From: Dictyostelium discoideum
Taxonomy: Eukaryota
Direction of reading: 5' to 3'
Assembly: GCA_000004695.1 (NCBI GenBank)
Contig: CM000155.2
Coordinates: 2,848,001-2,912,000 of the forward strand
DNA: 64,000 nt
Positions 1 to 57,312 of this stretch are shown here, one piece after another (the first letter of the stretch is position 1; every line of letters begins with the position of its first letter). The notes below the pieces were generated by a model. It saw nothing but the letters and a program-made list of their open reading frames with translations. It did no database searches and was not told the origin of the DNA. The position numbers were made by a program, and so were the translations under genes.

Positions 1-4673
<4,673 letters not shown>

Positions 4674-4832: not shown

Positions 4833-8482
<3,650 letters not shown>

Positions 8483-32500: not shown

Positions 32501-35500
32501 TTTATCTGCTATAATTCAACCAGATTTTTCACCAAGATATGCTAGTGGTTTTACAGAGGTTGTTGGTAGGTTAAAGAAATTGTTGGTTGCAACTAATGGT
32601 CCTTTGGTTCCATATCAACAAACTATTGTAAATAATTTAAGGAAACAAATTAAGCTGGCTCATCCCGATTATACAAACGAATATATTGGTAATTTATTAT
32701 TATTTATTTATTAATAATATTATAATATATATTTTTAAAATATTAATTTATTTTAATTATTATTATTTATTATTATTGTTTTTTTTTTTTTTTTTTTTTT
32801 TTATAGACCAATGCTTTGAAATATTTCAAGATTTTGAATCAATGCAAGGTTATTTTCTTGATCCAGGTTAGTATTTTTATTTTTTTGTTTTTAATTTTTT
32901 AAAATTCTCAACTTATTAATTTTTTATTATTTTTTATTTTTTTTTTTTTAGAAAATTATAGAGGAGTAATGGGAGGATTATGGTTTGATGAAAATGATTA
33001 TCGTTATAATGCACCAAAAGTTTTAAAGTATAGTATTAGTGTTGATGCAGATTATACAAATGATAATAATATACAAATTTCTCCAAGATCAGATTCACAA
33101 ATTTATCTTAGACATTATTTTACACAAATTCAAACAGCAGTTGATCAAGCAATTTTTATGGCACAAAATGTTGAAATACCAATGGTTGTAACTGGACAAA
33201 GATTTCCAAACCCTTATATACATTTATGGCAAACTTGGACCGATGGTAGAAATATGATTTTAAAAGAAACTGGTGGTATTTTTATAACTGCAGCTATATT
33301 CGTTGGTTTATTTACAACAATTACAAATATGGTAATGGAAAAAGAGTCAAAGATTCTCGAAGCAATGAAAATCATGGGATTACATTCACTTCCATATTAT
33401 GTTTCAATTGCAATTTCATCATGTTATACAATTATTCCATCAACGATAATTGTAATTGTAGTATTAAAAGGTTCACAATTAATTTGGACAACACAATGGT
33501 ATATTTTAACGATAATTTTAATACTATTTTCAATTTCATTGATTTTATTGGCATTTATTTTATCAAAATTTTTCAATCGTTCAAAATTTGCAGGTCTTGT
33601 TTGTTTTTTAATTGTTTTAATTATGGCAGGAATTGGTATTGCTGTAAATCATATCAATGTTTCAACTACCGTTAAATTAATTTTTTGTTTACTTTCACCG
33701 GTTGCAATCTCTTTAGCAAATTATTCAATGTCAATGAAAGATTTAGAATTAGTAAAAATTGTTAATCCAGATTGGTCAATTATCGTCTCAGAAAATCAAG
33801 TAATTGGTATGTTAATTTTAGATGTAGTTTTATATGCTGCATTAGTTTGGTATATTGATAATATTATCTCTGGTGAATTTGGTCAATCAAAACCATTTTA
33901 TTTCTTTTTAACTAAAAGTTATTGGTGTAAGAAAAATGCCAATGAAAATGATTTGGTCGATTTATCAAAAGCAATTGAATCACCTTTATATTTAAGAAAA
34001 AAGGATTTAGATTATAATAATAGTCAAGATTTTGAATTAAATGAAATTCATTCAAGTAAAGCAACAATCCAAATTAGAAAATTAAGAAAAGAATTTAAAA
34101 CTGGTGATGGTAAAAGAGTTGCTGTTGATGATCTTTCAATTGATATGTATCAAGATAGAATTCATTGTTTTTTAGGCCCAAATGGTTCTGGTAAATCAAC
34201 TACAATTGGGTAATTTATTTTTATTATTATTATTAAAAAATTATATATAATTATTTATTTTATTAATTTTTTATTTATTTATTTATTTATTATTTTTTTA
34301 AATAGAATGTTAACTGGATTAATAACATGTACTAGAGGTAGTGCATTAATTAATGGATTGGATATTAATCAAAACATTGATTTAATTAGAAAGAATATTG
34401 GTGTTGTTTTACAACAAGATATTATTTGGGATAATTTAACAGTATTAGAACATTTAATATTTTATGCACAATTAAAAGGTTATTCAAATTTAAAAGAAGC
34501 GAAAACCGAAGCAAAGAAAATGGGTATTGAAGTTGGTTTAGAATTAAAATTACATAATAAAGCTGGAACTTTATCAGGTGGTCAAAAAAGAAAATTATGT
34601 CTTGGTATTGCATTTATTGGTCCAAATTCAAATATTCTTTTCCTTGATGAAGTTTCAAGTGGTTTAGATCCATTATCAAGATCAGAGGTTCAAGATTTTA
34701 TAATTAGTAAAAAAAAAGGTAAAACAATTATACTTTCAACTCATTATATGGATGAAGCAGATTTACTTGGTGATACAATATCAATTATTGCACATGGTAA
34801 ATTAAAATGTAATGGTTCACCATTATTTTTAAAGAATAGATTTGGTGTTGGTTATTTATTAACAATAACAAAGAAATCCACTGAATTTAATAAGGATTCT
34901 GTTATGGAAATTACAAATAAATATATAAAACAAGCACATATTTTATCAGATGCAGGTACAGAGCTTAGTATTAGATTACCAATGGAATCATTACCAATGT
35001 TTTCACAATATTTTAAACATTTAGAAGATTGTAAAAATCAACTTTTAATTGATAGTTATGGTATTTCAATTTCGACATTGGAAGAGGTATTCTTAAAGAT
35101 TGGTCAAGAAACATTAAAATCAACACCAAATTTCAATGATCCAGCAGTAAAAGAAGCATTATCAACCAAAAGTAGTGGAGTTAAAGTTGGTCAACAATTA
35201 AAAGGTTTATTAATAAAACGTATTTGTACAACTAAAAAAGATTTTAAATCATTTATGTTTTCAATAGTTGTACCATTGATCATATTGGCTTTGGGATTGG
35301 TTATGTATAAAAATATGAGAACTATTGAAACATTTAATGATGTTACAACACCATTAACATTTTCAATTGATGATTATGGTGATAATATTTATGTTCCATG
35401 GTCAATTTCTGGTCAAAATCAAGCTATTGATTTAAGAATTAAAAATTCAATTGGTAAATCAAATCATTCAAAATTATTACCAGCTGATGAGCTAGAAGAT

Positions 35501-37540
35501 TATTTAACATTAAATTATGAAGGTAATCCAGGTGCATTTGCATTTGGTAAAACCATTATAGAAGATATTGAAATGTTAAGTTTTAAAGTTTATTATAATA
35601 GAGATTATTTACATGCACTTCCAATTTATATAAATTTCGTTGATAATTTAATGCTTAGTAATTTAGGTGGAGTTGGTATTCAAACTACATCAAGACCATT
35701 TCAACATATTAAAAGTAAATTTGAATTAGCAACTGAAAAAATTAATTTTAGTGCAATTATTTTCTTTATAATTTTAACATTGGCCGCTTTTGCTTTGGTT
35801 GTTGCATCACATGCTGGTAATATCGCTCAAGAAAGAGCTGCACGTATTAAACGTTTACTTTATATATCAGGTTTAAAAAAATATGTTTATTGGTTATCAA
35901 ATTTAATTTGGGATTATGTTTTAACCTTTATAATGGTGATTTTCCTTGCAGTTGTAGTTGTAATTATTGATTCAAAATTTAGAAACCAATTCCCATTATT
36001 CATTTGTGCTTTGGTTTTATTCGTTACTGCAATTATACCTCTAAGTTATTTATTTTCTTATTGTTGGAGTTCACATGGTAAAGCAACTGGTTTTATATTT
36101 GGTATTCATTTTGGTATTGGTTTATTAATGACAGTTACATGTTTTATTCTTAGAATTTGGGTAATTAAAGATGATAATGATATTTTACAAACAATAACAG
36201 ATATTATCGATTTAGTATTCTTTTTCTTTTCACCATTTTATTGTTTCTCAAAAGTGATGGTAATTATTTCAAATTTCCCAGGTACAACTAGATTGGGTGA
36301 ATCTTATATTGCAAATTATTGGGGTATTAAATTTGGTTTACCACCAGTTTGCTTCCTCGCACTTCATACATTGGTTTGGACAATTTGGATTATGGTATTA
36401 GATTATTATCCAGAATTACGTGGTAAATATAGAAAAGGTAGAAATGAAAAATCATCACCACCACCTCCATCAGATGAAGATTCAGATGTGTCTCATGAAA
36501 GATCAAAAGTTTTATCATTTGAAACTTCAAATGATCCAATTATAATGCGTGATTTCTTTAAACTTTATAAAGGAAAAGGTAAAGCAAAAGATAATCTTGC
36601 AGTTTATAATACATCATTATCAATTCCAAAAGGTCAAACATTTGGCCTTTTAGGTTTAAATGGTGCTGGTAAATCAACCACACTTGGTTGTCTTAGTGGT
36701 GAAGTTATACCTTCTGGTGGTGAAATTTTTGTAAATGGTTTCAATATTCAAACTCAAAGATTAGATGCTCTTCGTAGTGTTGGTTTTTGTCATCAATATA
36801 ATAGTTTAATTGGTTTATTAAGTGCTCGTGAACAAATTAGACTTTATTGTAGAATTAAAGGTATTGAAGAGAGTAAAATCCAAGAAACAGTGGAAGCTTT
36901 TATAAAAATGATGGATCTAGGATCAATTGGTAATTCAAATGTCGCTGGTTATTCAGGTGGTAATAAAAGAAAAGTTGCTCTAAGTGTTGCAATCGTTGGT
37001 AATCCATCAGTTTGCTTTTTGGATGAAGTTAGTGCTGGTGTTGATCCAGTTGTTGCAAGATTCATGTGGAATGTTATCACTGAGTTGAAAAAAGATAAAG
37101 TTATCATTTTAACTACACACTCAATGTTGGAATGTTCAGCAGTATGTGATAGATTAACTATAATGAAATCAGGTAAAATGATGTGTCTTGGTTCAATTCA
37201 ACATATTAAAGATAAATTTGGTTCAGGTTATTCAATCGATGTTAAATTTAAAAAAGAATATCTTTTATCTGGTATAAATTTATTCCAAAAAGAATTACCA
37301 AATGCAAAATTAGTTGATCATCATGATTTATCCGCAAGTTTTGAATTACCAAATTCTTTAGATTCACCAATTCAATTATCAAAAATATTTTCAATTATTG
37401 AAAGAAATTTAAAACCAATTTTAAATGATTATTCTGTTGGTCAAACTTCAATTGATCATATATTTTTAAAATTAACAAATTTAAATCAACAAAAAATTAA
37501 AAATCAACAAAAAGAATCAATTGAAAATCATATAATTGAT

Positions 37541-37574
<34 letters not shown>

Positions 37575-37774
37575 GTTATTTAAAGAATCATAAAAAAACT
37601 ACAAGTAACAATAGTATATTAACCAATAATAGTACAACTAAAAATTTTGGTTCTTCAAACTTTTTAGATCTTGAATCAGATAATACATATTTAAATAATT
37701 TAAAATATTTAGAAGATGATGATTTTAACATTGAAATGCCACCATACCAAAATTCACTTAAAAAATCATTTTAA
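32255..37774 (+). CDS. ABC transporter, A-family full transporter (TMD-NBD-TMD-NBD), 5-exon model
   Basis: Exon 1 is 32255..32387 ([20 protein letters not shown]...GILFGLL, donor GTATGT, phase 1). Exon 2 is 32500..32688 ([17 protein letters not shown]...HPDYTNEYI, donor GTAATT). Exon 3 is 32807..32866 ([20 protein letters not shown]). Exon 4 is 32952..34209 ([15 protein letters not shown]...[12 protein letters not shown], donor GTAATT, phase 2). Exon 5 is 34306..37774. NBD1 signature [17 protein letters not shown]; NBD2 Walker [11 protein letters not shown] and signature [17 protein letters not shown]; these with the large extracellular loop after TM1 are ABCA hallmarks. The exon 2 acceptor lies after an unusual 38-nt poly-A run. 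Confidence 0.8.
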
Positions 37775-40919: not shown

Positions 40920-43055
40920 ATTTGGATAATGATGGTCCAATTTTTAGTTTAATAGAAAAGATAGATGGTATTGATTTTGTATCAGGTATTAAACAAATTG
41001 GTTGGAATTTTACAATAACTGATGATTTAAATGGATTTGAAAAAGGATACATAAAAGTAATGGGTTCATTAGATAGTTCAACCTATGAATTTAATTTTAC
41101 ATCATTAGATTTTATTGAAGGAGATAAATGGAATGGAGTTTATTCATTATTAATAAATGTATCTTCAGCATGTTGTTCTCAAACTTTAACAATTACAAAT
41201 GTTATATTATATGATACAAATAATATCGTATCAAAATTTTCAATTTTTCCTAGAAAATCCTGGGCAGATACTCTTACAAATCCATTTAGAAATTATTATA
41301 AAAGTGGAATGAATATAACAAAGATCAATATATCTTGTGATATTGAATTATTTCCACAAGATGATTCAAATCCCGTAATATTATCAACATTTAACATTTC
41401 CACAAATATTTTAAATGTAATTGGTACAAATAGGGATGTAACAATTGATTTTTCAGTTATACCCTCAACATCAGGTTTAAAATTAGATCAATTACCAGTG
41501 GTTTATATTCATGCTAACCCAAATTCTTTAATTGATTGTAAATCAAAATTAAAAAGTCATAATCAAACATTAGTTGTTTATTCATGTACTATTGAAATTC
41601 CACTTGGATTTGGGTATCCTGGTAATTTATTATTTTCAATTTATGGATTCATTAATAATGCAGGTTTTTATAATGGAATTTTATCAGAAGATATTGAACT
41701 AATTGGAGCACTCAATTATATTTATACAACACTATCATTGGATGAACCAACAATCACTTCAACATCATACATTTATTCTGATACAACCCAATTTCAAATT
41801 TTTGGTAGAGGTTTATCTAAAAGTTTTAATGTTAATATTTATTATTCTACATATAATTTAACAGTACCTCCAAAACAAACTAATAGTTCATTTTTAACAA
41901 TAAATATTAAGCCATCAAAAGATCCATTTAAAATTCAAGTTGAAACATTAAATCATAAATCAAATATTTTTACAATTTATCCAATTTATTTTGATTTAGA
42001 TCGTAATGAAACAAATCCAACTCAATCACCAACTCCAACTCAATCACCAACTCCAACTCAATCTCAAAGTAATTTATGCAAAGGTAATCCTCAATGTGGT
42101 GGTCCAAACCAAGGAGTATGTAGTTTAAATGGTTGTATTTGTTTTTCACCTTGGATGGGTTCATCTTGTAATTCTCAAATTATAATTGTACCACAACCAA
42201 CAATTAATACAACAAGCCCATCAACTGTGATTCCAATACCTAATAATTCAACAGATTCATCAAGTTTATTATATAGTACATTAATTTCAATTGTATCATT
42301 AAGAGAATTAAATTTTAATGGTGGTCAAGAAAAAATATTTTATTTTGAAAAATGGATTTATTCAAATATTAATGATTATAAAAGTATTTATTTTACAACA
42401 ATCCCATCAGTAAATTCAAATATAACAGTAACATTAGAATGGTATAATTCAAGTTCAATTATTAAATTTGCAAATGAAACTTTTACAATGAACCCGTCAA
42501 GTATTAAATATACAATTGAAATTGATGGGTATCAATTTTCAAATAAATTAAATAGTCTTCAATTGGTTTTATCAGCATCATTAGAAACTAATAAAGAAGA
42601 TGTTTGTTCATCTAAAGAATTTTGGTCAACTGATACTACTAGTGATTATTTAAAAATTCAAATTGAAGATCATTCTCTTTACGGTAGATTTATTAAGAGG
42701 AATTGTCAATGGTAAACCAACAACTATATCAAATCAATTTTTAGATAAATTTCTTAATACAATTGATGAACCTTCATCAGTTCAATCATTCATTGGTATT
42801 ACAATTCCAAATTTTTCAAAAAATATTACCATTGACCCAGACTTTTCTGTTCTTTTTGATTATTCTAAAGATTCAAACTCAAATTGTTATTCAAATTCAA
42901 AACTATCAGGTTCTCAAATTGCCGGTATTATAATTGGTTCTGTATTGTTTGTAACAATAATAATAATATCAATTATCTATTACATTATTAAAAAAAGAAA
43001 ACAAAAAATATTTTTAAAAAATATTGGAGGTAAACTTCAAAAAATAAATAAATAA
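38335..43055 (+). CDS. Large secreted/type-I membrane glycoprotein with EGF-like Cys-rich module and C-terminal TM + short basic tail (tgr/lag-like family), multi-exon
   Basis: Coding blocks are phase-joinable. 38335..38732 has the signal peptide MKKDFFLLFIIHLLIFLCNCQ, donor AATG|GTAATT. About 38846..39139 is EVKISEIEVVILRPF..., 39226..39545 is YSFEQLPQQLNEL..., about 39690..39996 follows an (ATT)n-containing intron, then blocks 40040-40392 and 40470-40830. The long exon 40922..42683 has CKGNPQCGGPNQGVCSLNGCICFSPWMGSSCNS (EGF-like) and many N-glycosylation sites. The terminal exon 42745..43055 holds TM IAGIIIGSVLFVTIIIISIIYYII followed by KKRKQKIF. The last intron, 42684..42744 (GTAGAT...TTTTAG, 61 nt), is inferred and weak. 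Exact exon ends in the middle section are approximate. Confidence 0.5.
39574..39669. repeat. (ATT)n microsatellite inside an intron of the tgr-like gene
   Basis: Perfect ATT repeats spanning about 96 bp. Confidence 0.9.
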
Positions 43056-43270: not shown

Positions 43271-46200
43271 TTACATTTGTCTTGAAACTAATTCAGCATA
43301 GAAACCATTTTCAGCTAATAAAGTTTCATGAGTACCTAATTCAACTACTTTACCTTCTTTTACGACTACAATTAAATCAGCATCAATAACAGTTGATAAA
43401 CGATGAGCAATTACAATTGAAGTACGACCTTTAGAGACATTATCGAGTGCAACTTGTACTACTTTTTCAGAGACAGTATCTAAAGCAGATGTAGCCTCAT
43501 CTAATAATAAAACCTTTGGATTACGAATAATAGCACGAGCAATTGCAACACGTTGTTTTTGACCACCAGATAATTGAGTGAATTTATCACCTAATTGAGT
43601 ATGATAAGCATCTGGAAGTGATTCAATAAAAGTATGAGCATTTGCAGCTTTTGCAGCTTCAACAACTTCATCCATTGTTGCATCAGGTTTACCATAGATA
43701 ATATTTTCAAAGATTGTACCACTAAATAAGAAAGGTTCTTGACCAACTAAGCCCATATTACCTCTTAACCAATTCAAATTTAAATCTTTAATATTTACAC
43801 CATCAATAGTGATTGAACCTTGAGATGGATTATAAAAACGTTCAAGTAAAGAGATAACCGATGATTTACCACCACCACTATTGCCAACCAAAGCTACTTT
43901 TTTACCATGTGGAATGACTAAATTAAAACCTTGGAATACTGCTTTATTTGGACGTGATGGATAAGAGAATTTAATATCTTTAAATTCAATATCACCTTTG
44001 AACTCTGGTAAAGTTTGACCTTTATTTTCAAATGGATCAATTTCTGAAACTCTATCGATAAGACTAAAGATTGCTACGGCAGCTAATTTAGCTTTACCTA
44101 AATCTGGCATAAATGCCATTGATTGACCAACACCCATAGCAGACATAATAATTGCAAAGAATACTCTCATCATCATTGAAAAACCTTCAGTTGTAGTGAA
44201 AGATTTAATACAAGTAGCTTCATCGGTATAGCCAATATTAGCATATTCACCATTGTAACAATAAGTTTCTAAAGTTGATTCTTTTGCTGGCCATTCACCT
44301 GAATCTACTAATTTACCACCATACCAATAGGTGAGTGTATAAATAAAGAAGAGAGTACATTGTGAGAAACCAAAAGATAAACCACTAACATTTGATTTTC
44401 TAAAACTCATTTGAATTGGTTTTTGAAGACATTGACGGAACTTTTCCAAGATTTTATTTTCACAAGTGAATGAAGAAACTGTACGAATACCACCAATTGC
44501 TTCAGATGCAACTTGACCACATTCAGCATAAGCCTCTTTACCTTTTTGAGAGAAACCTTGGAAGAAATCCATTTCAACTTTACCTGCAAAACCAATTACA
44601 GGTACACATGCTAAAACCACCAAAGTTAATTTCCAACCACTAACAAATGCAATTACTAAACCAGCAACAATTGTAACAATATTTTGAATTAATAAACCAA
44701 GACGTTGTGAAGTCATACCTTGAACTAAAGTTGCTTCAGTTGCAAGATTTGCTGTTAATCTACCAGTTGAATTCTCTGTTAAATCAAACCAACCAATATC
44801 TTGTCTCATAATTGATTCAAATGATAATCTACGAAGATTAAATGTTAATTTCTCTCCAATGAATGTGAAACAATAAATTTGAATAAAGTTTGCCAAAGCT
44901 GCAACAACTGCCAATAAAATAAACCATAATGCCATATTTCTTGAACGACGAGTCAATTCATCAGTATCTTGTTCTTGGAAAATACCCAAAATCTCTGAAA
45001 AGATAATTGAAAATACTGGCATAATTGCACCATTTAATGTTGCACCAACCAAACCAATTAAGAAATGTGGCCAATCACCTCTACTCAATTTTAAGATACG
45101 ACCAATTGGTACAGATTTTTCTTGAGGTTTTTTTTCTTTCTTCTTTTTCTTTTTATTATCATTATCATTTACTAAACCAATGGTTGAAGTTTCTAAACTA
45201 TCGGCACCAATACTTTGAATTGATTTATCAATTGAAATACTACTTGGACCAATATTATTATTACTTTCATCTTTTGATGATTCTTTTGATTTCTTTTTCT
45301 TTTTTTTATCACCATCATCACCACCTTTTTGTTGTCTATTAACCAATTGAGTGTAAACACCATTTAAAGCATATAATTCTGGATGAGTACCAATTTCAAC
45401 GATTGCACCACCTTTAACTACAGCAATTTGATCAGCATCTTGAATTGTTGATAAACGATGAGCAATTACAATTGTGGTACGACCAATCATTAATTTTTCA
45501 ATTGATTGTTGTACTAATAATTCATTTTGAGAATCTAAAGCCGATGTGGCCTCATCTAATAATAGAATCTTTGGATCTTTAATCATTGCACGAGCAATTG
45601 CAATACGTTGTTTTTGACCACCAGACATTTGAACACCTTTTTCACCAACTTGAGTATCATAACCCTCTGGTAAAGCACTAATGAAATCATGAGCATTTGC
45701 GGTTTTACAAGCTTCAATAATTTGATCCATAGTTGCATTTTCATTACCATAACGTATATTTTCAGCGATTGAATTTGCAAATAACACTGGTTCTTGTGAT
45801 ACTAAACCAATATTTCTTCTTAGTGAATGAATATTAATCTCTTTAATATTTGTACCATCTAAATAAACTTCACCTTCATCTGGATCATAGAAACGTTCTA
45901 ATAAACCAATCACTGAAGATTTACCACCACCACTATCACCAACCAATGCAACGGTTGTACCTTTTTTAATGGTTAAATTGAAATTATTGAAAATTTTAAC
46001 ATCTGGACGTGATGGATAAGAGAATCCAATATTTCTATACTCTATATTACCTTGAACAGTTTCTTCAATTGATCTACCTTCAGTAGAGAATGGGTCGATT
46101 TTAGAGTTACGATCAACAACCTCATAGATTTTAAAAGCTGCACCTCTACCATTTGCAAATGATGCAACATTTGGACTTGCTTGACCTAATGCCATAGCAC

Positions 46201-47138
46201 CCATAATCACTGAAAAGAATACAGTTAATACATCACCACCTTGCCATGGTCTATCTGGTACTGGATTCCATTTTCTATCGACAATTAATTTACCACCATA
46301 CCAAAATGATAACGAATAAGTACCAAATAATACTAAAAATACTAAACCAATACCAATACCATTCATTATACCTTTCTTTGTACCAATATCTAATGCTTCC
46401 TTTAAACGTTCAGTATAACGTTTAACTTCAAATGGTTCACCTGAAAATGTTGAAACAGTTCTAATTGATCCAATCTTTTCTTCTGCAACACCACCAGCTT
46501 TTGCATATGCATCTTGACCTTTCTTTGTTAAATCTGCCATCATTTTTGTCATAAATGCTCCTGCTGCTGCAATTAATGGTGTTAATGCAAAAATTACTAA
46601 AGTTAATTGCCAACCTATAATATATTATAATAATAATAATAAAAAAAAAAAAAAAAAAAAAAATTATTGTTAATTTAATTGAAAAAAAAAATAAGAAAAG
46701 AAAAGAAATACAAAAAAATAAATAATAATTATAATTTTTACCATTTACAAAACCAACAATAAAACCACAAATAAAAGTTGAAGTATGATGTAAGAAATTA
46801 CCAATTTTCTCACCAATTGCTTCTTGGAATAATAAAGTATCACTACTAATTCTAGTTGAAAGTTCACTAGATTTTGTAACATCATACCAACCAATCTCTT
46901 GTTTAAGAATTGCTTTTAAATAAGCTTTTCTACATCTAACTGCTTGACGTTCACCTGCTAACATCCAAAATGCTACTTCAACATATGAACATACAAAAAC
47001 ACCACAACCAATATAAATAAAATACATTGCATTTGATGTAACTGTTTCAACTAAATCAAAATTTGGATCCGCTAAATTTTCTGGTGAAAATGAATTCATT
47101 AAACGACCCTATAAAAAAAAATATATAAAAATGAAAAT

Positions 47139-47173
<35 letters not shown>

Positions 47174-47850
47174 TTAGAAATATATTTTAAAATATATATT
47201 GAAATATTTAATTGTAATTCCTATAGGAATTTGATAACTTACAAATACAATGGAAATGGCTGGCATTGAAACACTGTTTAATTTTATTTTTTTATTTTTT
47301 TTTTTTTTGGAAAATTTTGGAAAATTTTTGTAAGTAAATTTAGGAGAAAAAAAAAAATGAAAAAAATGAAAAAAATGAAAAAAAATGAAAAAATTTACCC
47401 ATTTGCCAAAGCACCAATAGTACCAATGATCATTAATAATATATCAAAAGGTTTTGCAAATCTAAATAATGAAAAAAATGGAACTTGTGGTCCAACCTCA
47501 CCTTCTTTTTTTTCACCTTCATCTAATTTTTTTGATTGAGTTGTACTAAGAGTTTTAACTGAATCACCACCATCTGATGTAATATCAATTGGTGATAAAA
47601 TACCATTATTAGTTGGTCTATCATCAATTGTATCCATTTTAATATTTCCAAAATCTTCTTTTTTATTTTTATAATCTTTTAAATTTTCTTCATTATCATC
47701 GCTATTTTTATTATTATTATTATTATTATTATTTTCGTTGTCGTCTTGATTATTTATATCATTATTATTTTCATCATCAATTGAATTTATATTAATATTA
47801 TCCATAGGAAGTGAATCGTTTTCACCGCCATCGTTTGATTTATCACTCAT
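43271..47850 (-). CDS. ABC transporter, B-family full transporter (P-glycoprotein/MDR-like, TMD-NBD-TMD-NBD), 4 exons including a 31-nt micro-exon
   Basis: Exon 1 is 47399..47850 (MSDKSNDGG...VPFFSLFRFAKPFDILLMIIGTIGALANG, donor GTAAAT, phase 2). The micro-exon is 47243..47273 (VSMPAISIVF; acceptor AACAG, donor GTAAGT). Exon 3 is 46742..47108 (GRLMNSFSPENL...FICGFIVGFVNG, acceptor TTTATAG, donor GTAAAA, phase 1). Exon 4 is 43271..46614 (WQLTLVIFALTPL...). The assembled N-terminus ALANGVSMPAISIVFGRLMNSF aligns with human ABCB1 HGAGLPLMMLVFGEMTDIF. Two NBDs carry LSGGQKQRIAIARAM and LSGGQKQRVAIARAI signatures. Confidence 0.8.
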
Positions 47851-49243: not shown

Positions 49244-50392
49244 TTAATCTTTTTCTAAAATTATTGAATAATAACTAAATAGATTTTCAATATTTTTAAT
49301 TGGTGAAATTTTAATTTGATTAATAAATTTTGAAATAAATAATTGATATAATGAATCTTTAGTAGTTTGATCACCATTTATAAAATTTTTAAGTGATGTT
49401 TCACAAGCGGCATTCATATATGAGAATAAAATTTCGGATTTTTCTTGATCTGATAAAATCATACTATCATGACTATCAGAGAACTTTTGAAGATGTAATT
49501 TTATTGAAATTAACTTTAAACCATAATCATTTTCAACCATTTTAATTGAATCTAAAATCTCATCTTTTCTATAAAAATTAATTGGAATAATCATTTTGTC
49601 AACTTCATTCATTGAAATTAAATTTTCATTTGCCATTTGTTTCCAAACTGTTTTTGAAAGTTTAAATAATTCATAAAGTACATTATTTTCATTGGAGGTG
49701 GTGGTGGTAGTGGTAGTGGTGGTGGATGAGGTGGGTGTCTCATTTTCATTTTCATTTTCATTTTCATTTTCATTTTCATTCATTACAGTTAACATGAAAA
49801 TACCACCTTTTTTTAATTCTTTAGCACGAAGTGAAAAGTTTTTATATAAAATGTCAATGCAATATTGTTTGTATTCTTTTGATCTGTGTTTACAGTAAAC
49901 ACCAATCGAGTCAGGGTCGTAGTGGAATGATACGTGATAGTTACTCCAATGGGATGCGGAGAAGGAGAAGACGTAATCTATGGTGTTTGAGGGCACTAGT
50001 TGATTGTAGAATGAGTTTCCAATACCATAGAAATAGATTTGATTTGATAATTTAATATAACTATTTTTATTATCAGAGATTTCTTTAAAAAGTAATGAGA
50101 AATTATTTTCAGGTAAATCTTCATGGTATACTTCAAAACACTGATTAGGAAATTGTTTTAATACAGTTGAAATTATTAAATTAATTGGTATAATTGAGTT
50201 TCTACCATGACTAGATCCGATATCTAATATTCTAATTATATTTGGATTTAATTGATTTTGATTTTTTTCATCATGATCTCCAATTTTAAATTTAATATTT
50301 TCAATCATTATATCACATGATTTAATTACCATATCCATTGTATTATTAATTGTTTGGCTTTGAACTTTTGAAAAATCATTATAACTTGATTG

Positions 50393-50395
<3 letters not shown>
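49244..50395 (-). CDS. SAM-dependent carboxyl methyltransferase, SABATH (Methyltransf_7) family-like
   Basis: 383-aa single ORF. ILDIGSSHGRNS matches the SAM-binding D-L-G-C-S-x-G-x-N-T block of plant SAMT/JMT-type enzymes, and overall length and layout fit. Contains an internal (NE)n/Thr tract. Confidence 0.6.
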
Positions 50396-57129: not shown

Positions 57130-57312
57130 TTTTTATTTTTCTATGCCCAAAATTACCATATTAATTTCGGCAGCCATATTAATTTCAGCCTAAAATAGTT
57201 GGTCTGTGCATGCCAAAATTAATATGGCTGCTGAAATTAATATGGTAATTCTAGCAGACATAAGTCCCATGCCAAAATTATCATATTAATTTCAGCAGCC
57301 ATATTAATTTTG
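57130..57312. mobile_element. Foldback-type repeat, second locus of the 45-bp unit (direct/inverted arrangement), thug-like
   Basis: cccaaaattaccatattaatttcggcagccatattaatttcagcc ... ccaaaattaatatggctgctgaaattaatatggtaatt (inverted) ... ccaaaattatcatattaatttcagcagccatattaattttggcatggg. Same unit as at 24951-25108. Confidence 0.45.

Follow-up and report, generated by a model that had tools for sequence, protein, structure and literature searches.

A Probable Constitutive 31-nt Micro-Exon Within Transmembrane Helix 1 of the Dictyostelium discoideum ABC Transporter AbcB2

Introduction

Micro-exons of animals are mostly 3–27 nt long, have lengths that are a multiple of three, are alternatively included in transcripts, and encode segments of surface loops. 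They require dedicated enhancers because the long introns that surround them impose exon definition, and, in genomes with short introns, splice sites pair across the intron and the length of the exon is hardly constrained. Like the neuronal, SRRM4-dependent micro-exons of animals, exon 2 of the Dictyostelium discoideum gene abcB2 is very short, internal, and coding, and has canonical splice sites. Unlike them, it is 31 nt long, would shift the reading frame if skipped, falls within a transmembrane helix, and lies between introns of 125 and 134 nt, where it is most likely constitutive. A search of the literature on micro-exons in Dictyostelium returned nothing relevant.

The protein encoded by abcB2 shares the TMD-NBD-TMD-NBD architecture of mammalian ABCB1, ABCB4, and plant ABCB19, although its overall identity to these transporters is about 44–46% and it differs from the solved ABCB chains by an Asn/Asp-rich N-terminal tail of about 110 residues that, as judged from alignment offsets, has no counterpart in them. 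In a microarray study (PMC2474670), the gene is listed as being expressed and as slightly induced on Pseudomonas. With regard to the origin of its introns, the closest described cases are the 40 putative intron gains reported for D. discoideum by Ma, Che, Porceddu & Niu 2015 (PMC4683709), which were scored by comparison with D. purpureum, P. pallidum, D. fasciculatum, and E. histolytica and mostly lack an identifiable source sequence; the same authors caution that what looks like a gain may in fact be a misinterpreted loss.

The reading favored here, to which a probability of roughly 0.95 is assigned, is that positions 47273..47243 of the minus strand constitute exon 2 of D. discoideum abcB2 and that this exon is most likely constitutively spliced. 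The micro-exon is real, and its original prediction from the DNA is correct, but it was already known and is not new; the only mildly new point concerns its apparently recent origin and the turnover of introns around it.

Structure and Identity of the abcB2 Gene

The window, that is, the whole stretch of 64,000 nt that was analyzed, has a G+C content of 23%, its genes agree exactly with proteins of D. discoideum, and abcB2 runs along its minus strand from 47850 to 43271 (Table 1). When the four exons are joined, they give a coding sequence of 4194 nt that is translated into 1397 residues with no stop. Exon 1 encodes the Asn/Asp-rich N-terminal tail and the initial part of transmembrane helix 1 (TM1; …FDILLMIIGTIGALAN-G), and its 3′ end reads ATT GGT GCT TTG GCA AAT GG/GTAAAT, where the slash marks the junction.

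Table 1. Exons and introns of abcB2 and neighboring genes, in coordinates of the window.
Feature	Position	Strand	Length	Description
abcB2 exon 1	47399..47850	-	452 nt	150 codons + 2 nt, ATG at 47850; from sequence reading, translation, and exact match to Q54BT3
abcB2 intron 1	47274..47398	-	125 nt	GTAAAT…AAACAG; 12.8% G+C
abcB2 exon 2 (micro-exon)	47243..47273	-	31 nt	T GTT TCA ATG CCA GCC ATT TCC ATT GTA TTT
abcB2 intron 2	47109..47242	-	134 nt	GTAAGT…TTATAG; 10.4% G+C
abcB2 exon 3	46742..47108	-	367 nt	Starts GGT CGT TTA ATG (GRLMNSF…); ends …GTA AAT G, phase 1
abcB2 intron 3	46615..46741	-	127 nt	GTAAAA…TTATAG; 6.3% G+C
abcB2 exon 4	43271..46614	-	3344 nt including stop	Uninterrupted; rest of TMD1, NBD1, linker, TMD2, NBD2
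ABCA-type transporter	32969..37774	+		ABC2_membrane_3, ABC_tran, R1_ABCA1
ComC-like protein	40922..42715	+		DUF7035, DUF7034, ComC_SSD
SAM-dependent carboxyl methyltransferase	49244..50395	-		Methyltransf_7

Two ABC_membrane domains (E 3.7e-128) and two ABC_tran domains (E 5.8e-69) were found by Pfam in the 1397-residue product, which thus carries the TMD-NBD-TMD-NBD layout in a single polypeptide, with transmembrane domains of the type I exporter kind. The Walker A, ABC signature, and Walker B motifs are present in both NBDs, reading GDSGGGKS, MSGGQKQR, and ILLLDEATSALD in the translation of NBD1 and GNSGGGKS, LSGGQKQR, and VLLLDEATSALD in that of NBD2. Among solved structures, TMD1 is best matched by ABCB4, ABCB19, and ABCB1 (E 1e-100 to 1e-90), and these matches, together with the names of database entries, point to subfamily B as the closest characterized relatives. 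By these features of its sequence, the abcB2 product is a full-length ABCB (MDR/P-glycoprotein-type) transporter.

An exact-sequence look-up identified the four-exon product as AbcB2 of D. discoideum AX4 (UniProt Q54BT3, XP_629136.1, EAL60721.1), named 'ABC transporter B family member 2' in UniRef100_Q54BT3; DDB_G0293438 is taken here to be the identifier of its gene. The original prediction had proposed a comparison with the annotated gene model, and the two translations agree in 1397/1397 residues; the annotated abcB2 is the same gene with the same exon, without differences, so that the public gene model already contains the micro-exon. Moreover, VSMPAISIVF, the decapeptide encoded by the micro-exon, occurs in all seven deposited models of the 90% cluster, the other six coming from three more isolates of D. 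discoideum, from D. citrinum (two models), and from the entry AAL74249.1 ('ABC transporter AbcB2'). The latter, an independent GenBank model of 2002 with 1407 residues, already includes the decapeptide, and its sole difference from the current model is the presence of ten extra residues, KNYNYYLFFC, which derive from 30 nt of intron 3 (46712..46741) and are absent from the current AbcB2 model and from all orthologues.

Intron 1 carries four copies of TCATTTTTTT at a spacing of 9–10 nt (47351..47388) and two copies of AAAATTTTCC in tandem (47309..47328), and intron 2 contains an unbroken A32 run (47141..47172), all of which is typical low-complexity intron sequence. Intron 2 also contains a perfect 16-nt palindrome, AATTCCTATAGGAATT (47216..47231), located 12 nt downstream of the donor of the micro-exon; it is not kept in D. 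citrinum and is, therefore, probably due to chance. As for the neighborhood of the gene, the methyltransferase next to abcB2 is common to D. discoideum and D. citrinum, and, in D. firmibasis, an ABCA-type gene directly adjoins abcB2. Elsewhere in the window, positions 57219..57307 match the mir-7131 microRNA precursor family of Rfam with a score of 96 bits, above the gathering score of 74, and the match appears on both strands, as is expected because the hairpin is near-palindromic.

The Micro-Exon and the Reading Frame

The original prediction held that exon 1 ends in phase 2 and that exon 3 begins on a codon boundary, and both statements are borne out by the minus-strand reading, in which exon 3 starts at 47108 with TTTTTTTTATAG/ followed by GGT CGT TTA ATG AAT TCA. 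It also held that both exons cannot be joined directly; indeed, the direct join runs into immediate stops (…ALANGVV and then two stop codons), and the protein cannot extend past residue 152 without the micro-exon. The gap between them measures exactly the 290 nt that had been given for it (47398..47109). Within it, the 31-nt exon TGTTTCAATGCCAGCCATTTCCATTGTATTT, preceded by AAAATTAAACAG with its AAACAG acceptor and followed by a GTAAGT donor, restores the frame as had been claimed: its first base completes a Gly codon and the rest encodes ten residues (GGT GTT TCA ATG CCA GCC ATT TCC ATT GTA TTT), adding G-VSMPAISIVF and ending in phase 0. Thus, the exon is internal, has AG at its acceptor and GT at its donor, and stays within the limit of ≤51 nt used for micro-exons, while lying just outside stricter limits (27–30 nt); its inclusion is required for the frame and gives homologous protein sequence. 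Its G+C content of 35.5% is far from the 12.8% and 10.4% of the flanking introns, and the neighboring exons have 25–29%. Every number and sequence in the original prediction proved correct, and the exon, its frame, and its role are all supported.

The 290-nt gap contains five AG and six GT dinucleotides, and three frame-restoring, stop-free AG..GT segments can be built from them, of 1, 25, and 31 nt, with one acceptor in common. An open frame that merely happens to be flanked by AG and GT inside an intron is not in itself rare, since a frame-restoring segment of this kind without stops turned up in 25% of 20,000 shuffled versions of the gap. Nevertheless, a 31-nt segment appeared in only 1.1% of these shuffles, and none of the 20,000 yielded a 31-nt exon as similar as the observed one to the corresponding peptide of Heterostelium album, in which the sequence is intron-less. 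Likewise, when the bases of the exon itself were shuffled 200,000 times, the observed similarity score to that peptide was never reached, and the decapeptide is identical to that of D. purpureum in all ten residues. A chance origin of the open frame is refuted by the shuffle tests and this identity, and can be considered virtually impossible.

Homology of the Encoded Segment to TM1 of ABCB Transporters

The original prediction assigned to the micro-exon the completion of TM1 in a P-glycoprotein-like ABCB transporter, and this assignment agrees with the alignments. The stretch ALANGVSMPAISIVFGRLMNSF aligns without gaps to TM1 of solved structures, namely those of ABCB4, ABCB19, and an ABCB1 chimera of human and mouse, in alignments that are unbroken across langvsmpaisivfgrlmnsf, and its counterpart in mammalian ABCB1 is HGAGLPLTMLIFGDMTDSF in the multiple alignment. 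The ten residues line up, column by column, with the pattern …G-[AS]-x-L-P-L-M-M-[LI]-[VI]-F-G… of TM1 in solved ABCB1, ABCB4, and plant ABCB19, where their equivalents are residues 62–71 of 6fn4_A (the human-mouse chimera) and 69–78 of 7niu_A, in chain numbering counted from the alignments. An internal control is provided by the C-terminal half of AbcB2 itself, where the homologous TM7 stretch reads NGAIMPVFSIIF. The multiple alignment, in which dictyostelid orthologues and a D. discoideum paralogue were set beside mammalian ABCB1, fish ABCB4, a plant ABCB, and the C-terminal half of AbcB2, has no gap at the columns of the micro-exon, with the one exception of an automated D. dimigraforme model.

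Conservation of the Micro-Exon in Related Species

Orthologous loci were retrieved and each deposited protein was mapped onto its own DNA. A protein search with the N-terminal region returned only proteins of ≤626 residues, among which there were no D. discoideum transcript fragments, and it therefore missed the full-length orthologues, which were found by a second, full-length search. In H. album PN500, the relative is represented by two adjacent models separated by 65 nt, one of 371 residues with only TMD1 (L002, 4001..5116) and another of 964 residues (5182..8076), which are probably one ABCB gene split by annotation.

Between D. discoideum and D. citrinum, 28 of the 31 nt of the micro-exon are identical and indels are absent from it; each of the three differences (GCC→GCA, TCC→TCA, and GTA→GTG) is a synonymous change at a third position, whereas intron 1 is 58% identical (19 gapped columns) and intron 2 only 44% (41 gapped columns). 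Both the AG acceptor and the GT donor of the micro-exon are retained in D. citrinum. Among D. discoideum, D. citrinum, D. dimigraforme, and D. firmibasis, variable sites are distributed as 1/1/6 over the first, second, and third codon positions. In D. firmibasis, intron 1 is present and intron 2 is absent, and VSMPAISIVFGRLM… is encoded in one continuous exon (L005, 1068..1466) in which the fused sequence reads GTT TCT ATG CCA GCA ATT TCA ATT GTA TTT GGT AGA TTA ATG. In D. purpureum, the identical decapeptide is encoded within an uninterrupted exon, and neither intron site is occupied in this species, in P. violaceum, T. lacteum, H. album, and C. fasciculata, or in the D. discoideum paralogue. 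Taken together, the fused or uninterrupted exons of the relatives, the pattern of differences from D. citrinum, and the variation by codon position leave no reasonable doubt that these 31 nt encode protein in the frame described. By the same comparison, the coding constraint on the micro-exon exceeds that on the flanking introns, and purifying selection in this reading frame is evident.

These data also bear on the way in which exon 1 and exon 3 are connected. A single long intron without any micro-exon, with exon 1 using another donor or exon 3 another acceptor, would be formally feasible, since 32 single-intron GT…AG combinations, all lying within ±150 nt, preserve the reading frame and contain no stop. 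However, all 32 were rejected, because each of them removes conserved residues and deletes most or all of TM1, which is ungapped in all homologues and in the solved structures. Moreover, they need GT or AG dinucleotides that lie within conserved coding sequence, and a single intron can explain neither an island of 90% identity with exclusively synonymous changes amid diverged intron sequence nor the exact match of the deposited AbcB2 protein to the micro-exon model. A single intron in this place is, thus, extremely improbable.

A shorter version of the exon must also be considered, of 25 nt (47273..47249), which would end at an internal GTATTT donor at 47248 and yield a protein without Val-Phe. 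This version keeps the frame and is free of stops, and the GT of its donor is also found in D. citrinum. Nevertheless, GTATTT is a much poorer match to a donor than the downstream GTAAGT, two hydrophobic residues (VF, IF, or VL) are retained at the Val-Phe columns in all homologues, Val-Phe is encoded within uninterrupted exons in D. firmibasis and D. purpureum, and the deposited AbcB2 includes both residues. As the main form, the 25-nt exon seems very unlikely and, if it exists, it can only be a minor isoform.

Proposed Splicing of the Micro-Exon

We infer both splice junctions of the 31-nt micro-exon from the DNA. The predicted spliced sequence would read …GCAAATGG-TGTTTCAATGCCAGCCATTTCCATTGTATTT-GGTCGT…. 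The introns on either side of the exon, of 125 and 134 nt, are short and extremely rich in A+T and have canonical GT…AG ends, and VSMPAISIVF forms the middle of TM1. The splice sites of both introns would be paired across each intron, through intron definition, and, given short introns and this type of pairing, the micro-exon would be expected to be included in every transcript with no need for special enhancer machinery.

Animal micro-exons are often alternative, and regulated skipping could, in principle, act as an on/off switch for the production of AbcB2, as omission of the micro-exon leads to immediate stop codons and would leave a truncated, non-productive transcript. However, nothing supports skipping of exon 2 of abcB2; both of its splice sites are strong and its introns are short and typical of this gene. 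Furthermore, in D. firmibasis the exon forms one piece with exon 3 and the protein is unchanged, which argues against a conserved regulatory role of the exon-intron arrangement. Regulated skipping is, hence, very unlikely. The two functional isoforms that characterize a regulated micro-exon of the SRRM4 type are not available to abcB2 exon 2, since skipping cannot yield a functional isoform when the frame shift leads to immediate stops. Constitutive inclusion remains the preferred reading.

Age of the Micro-Exon and Turnover of Introns

A neighbor-joining tree built from full-length AbcB2 proteins groups the closest species as (((D. discoideum, D. citrinum), D. dimigraforme), D. firmibasis), with two D. 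purpureum copies as sister to this four-species group and the other dictyostelids outside. Intron 1 occurs in D. discoideum, D. citrinum, D. dimigraforme, and D. firmibasis and is absent from all of the outgroups examined. Intron 2 occurs in D. discoideum, D. citrinum, and, shifted by 1 nt, D. dimigraforme, and is absent in D. firmibasis and the outgroups examined. Given that D. firmibasis has only intron 1, and that D. purpureum and five more distant relatives have neither, the micro-exon looks evolutionarily young, its limits having been set, as far as the distribution of introns indicates, by two introns confined to the D. discoideum species complex. On the tree, parsimony favors two gains, the second after the split of D. 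firmibasis; the alternative, a loss in D. firmibasis together with many losses in the outgroups, is less parsimonious.

Introns 1 and 2 of abcB2 resemble the gains described by Ma et al. 2015 in being present in D. discoideum, absent in the outgroups examined, and without a source sequence. The present comparison goes beyond that study by including very close species, with 92–97% protein identity, and this allows intron 2 to be placed inside the D. discoideum complex. The supplements of Ma et al. 2015, Table S1 included, contain none of the identifiers DDB_G0293438, DDB0191940, abcB2, and Q54BT3.

In D. dimigraforme, intron 2 is found one base further 3′ (TTTG/GTAAGA…TATAG/GT CGT, as compared with TTT/GTAAGT…TATAG/GGT CGT in D. 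discoideum and D. citrinum), so that the micro-exon has 32 nt (L009, 1182..1213) and the intron is a phase-1 intron (1214..1311). This shift looks like a one-base intron slide through a compensating gain and loss of G. The deposited D. dimigraforme protein (P0034) makes use of an internal acceptor, CCCAG/T (L009, 1198..1215), giving a 17-nt exon without five TM1 residues, VSMPS, and the upstream acceptor TTAAAG/ (1181/1182) would restore the full homologous stretch. Thus, the micro-exon is probably mis-annotated in this species, and the use of a different internal acceptor in its model means that gene predictors disagree on such exons.

Further differences among species affect the TM7 segment, the internal homologue of TM1, which in the window is part of exon 4 (ORF 43271..46552, reading …NGAIMPVFSIIFSEILGIFQ…). 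In D. dimigraforme, this segment has an intron after AIMPVF (L009, 3421..3530), and in D. citrinum it has one after SEIL-G (L001, 4251..4362), eight codons beyond that of D. dimigraforme and in a different phase; both introns are absent in D. discoideum and D. firmibasis.

Regarding the source of these introns, an all-against-all blastn comparison of 11 introns, directed at a shared repeat of the introner type, gave only poly(A)/poly(T) matches; the similarity between introns is homopolymeric only, and an introner-like origin is unsupported. In a comparison of intron ends with the flanking exons (Smith-Waterman against shuffles), no resemblance indicative of tandem duplication was found, and the sole nominal hit (D. 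discoideum intron 2, p ~0.008) consisted of the A32 run against the A-rich end of intron 1.

Taking the tree and the positions of the introns together, the micro-exon may have been carved from a continuous TM1 exon, with intron 1 arising after the split of D. purpureum, intron 2 arising after the split of D. firmibasis, and a one-base slide occurring in D. dimigraforme; with the two species-specific introns in TM7, abcB2 would then be a small, natural hot spot of very recent intron gain. The odds for this history as a whole appear to be even.

Implications for Annotation and Intron Evolution

The consequence for the annotation of D. discoideum is small, since the exon is already contained in the RefSeq/UniProt model of abcB2 and in the model of 2002. 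The case illustrates, however, that the arithmetic of reading frames in combination with homology can recover an exon that is invisible to an ORF track, and that automated pipelines still mis-call such exons, as the deposited D. dimigraforme protein, short of five residues in TM1, exemplifies. With respect to the evolution of introns, the presence, position, and phase of introns vary in the TM1 and TM7 segments among AbcB2 proteins that are 92–97% identical, and this variation supplies dated examples of intron turnover for the newly sequenced Dictyostelium genomes. If the proposed history of recent gains is true, abcB2 could be used for studying the origin of new introns.
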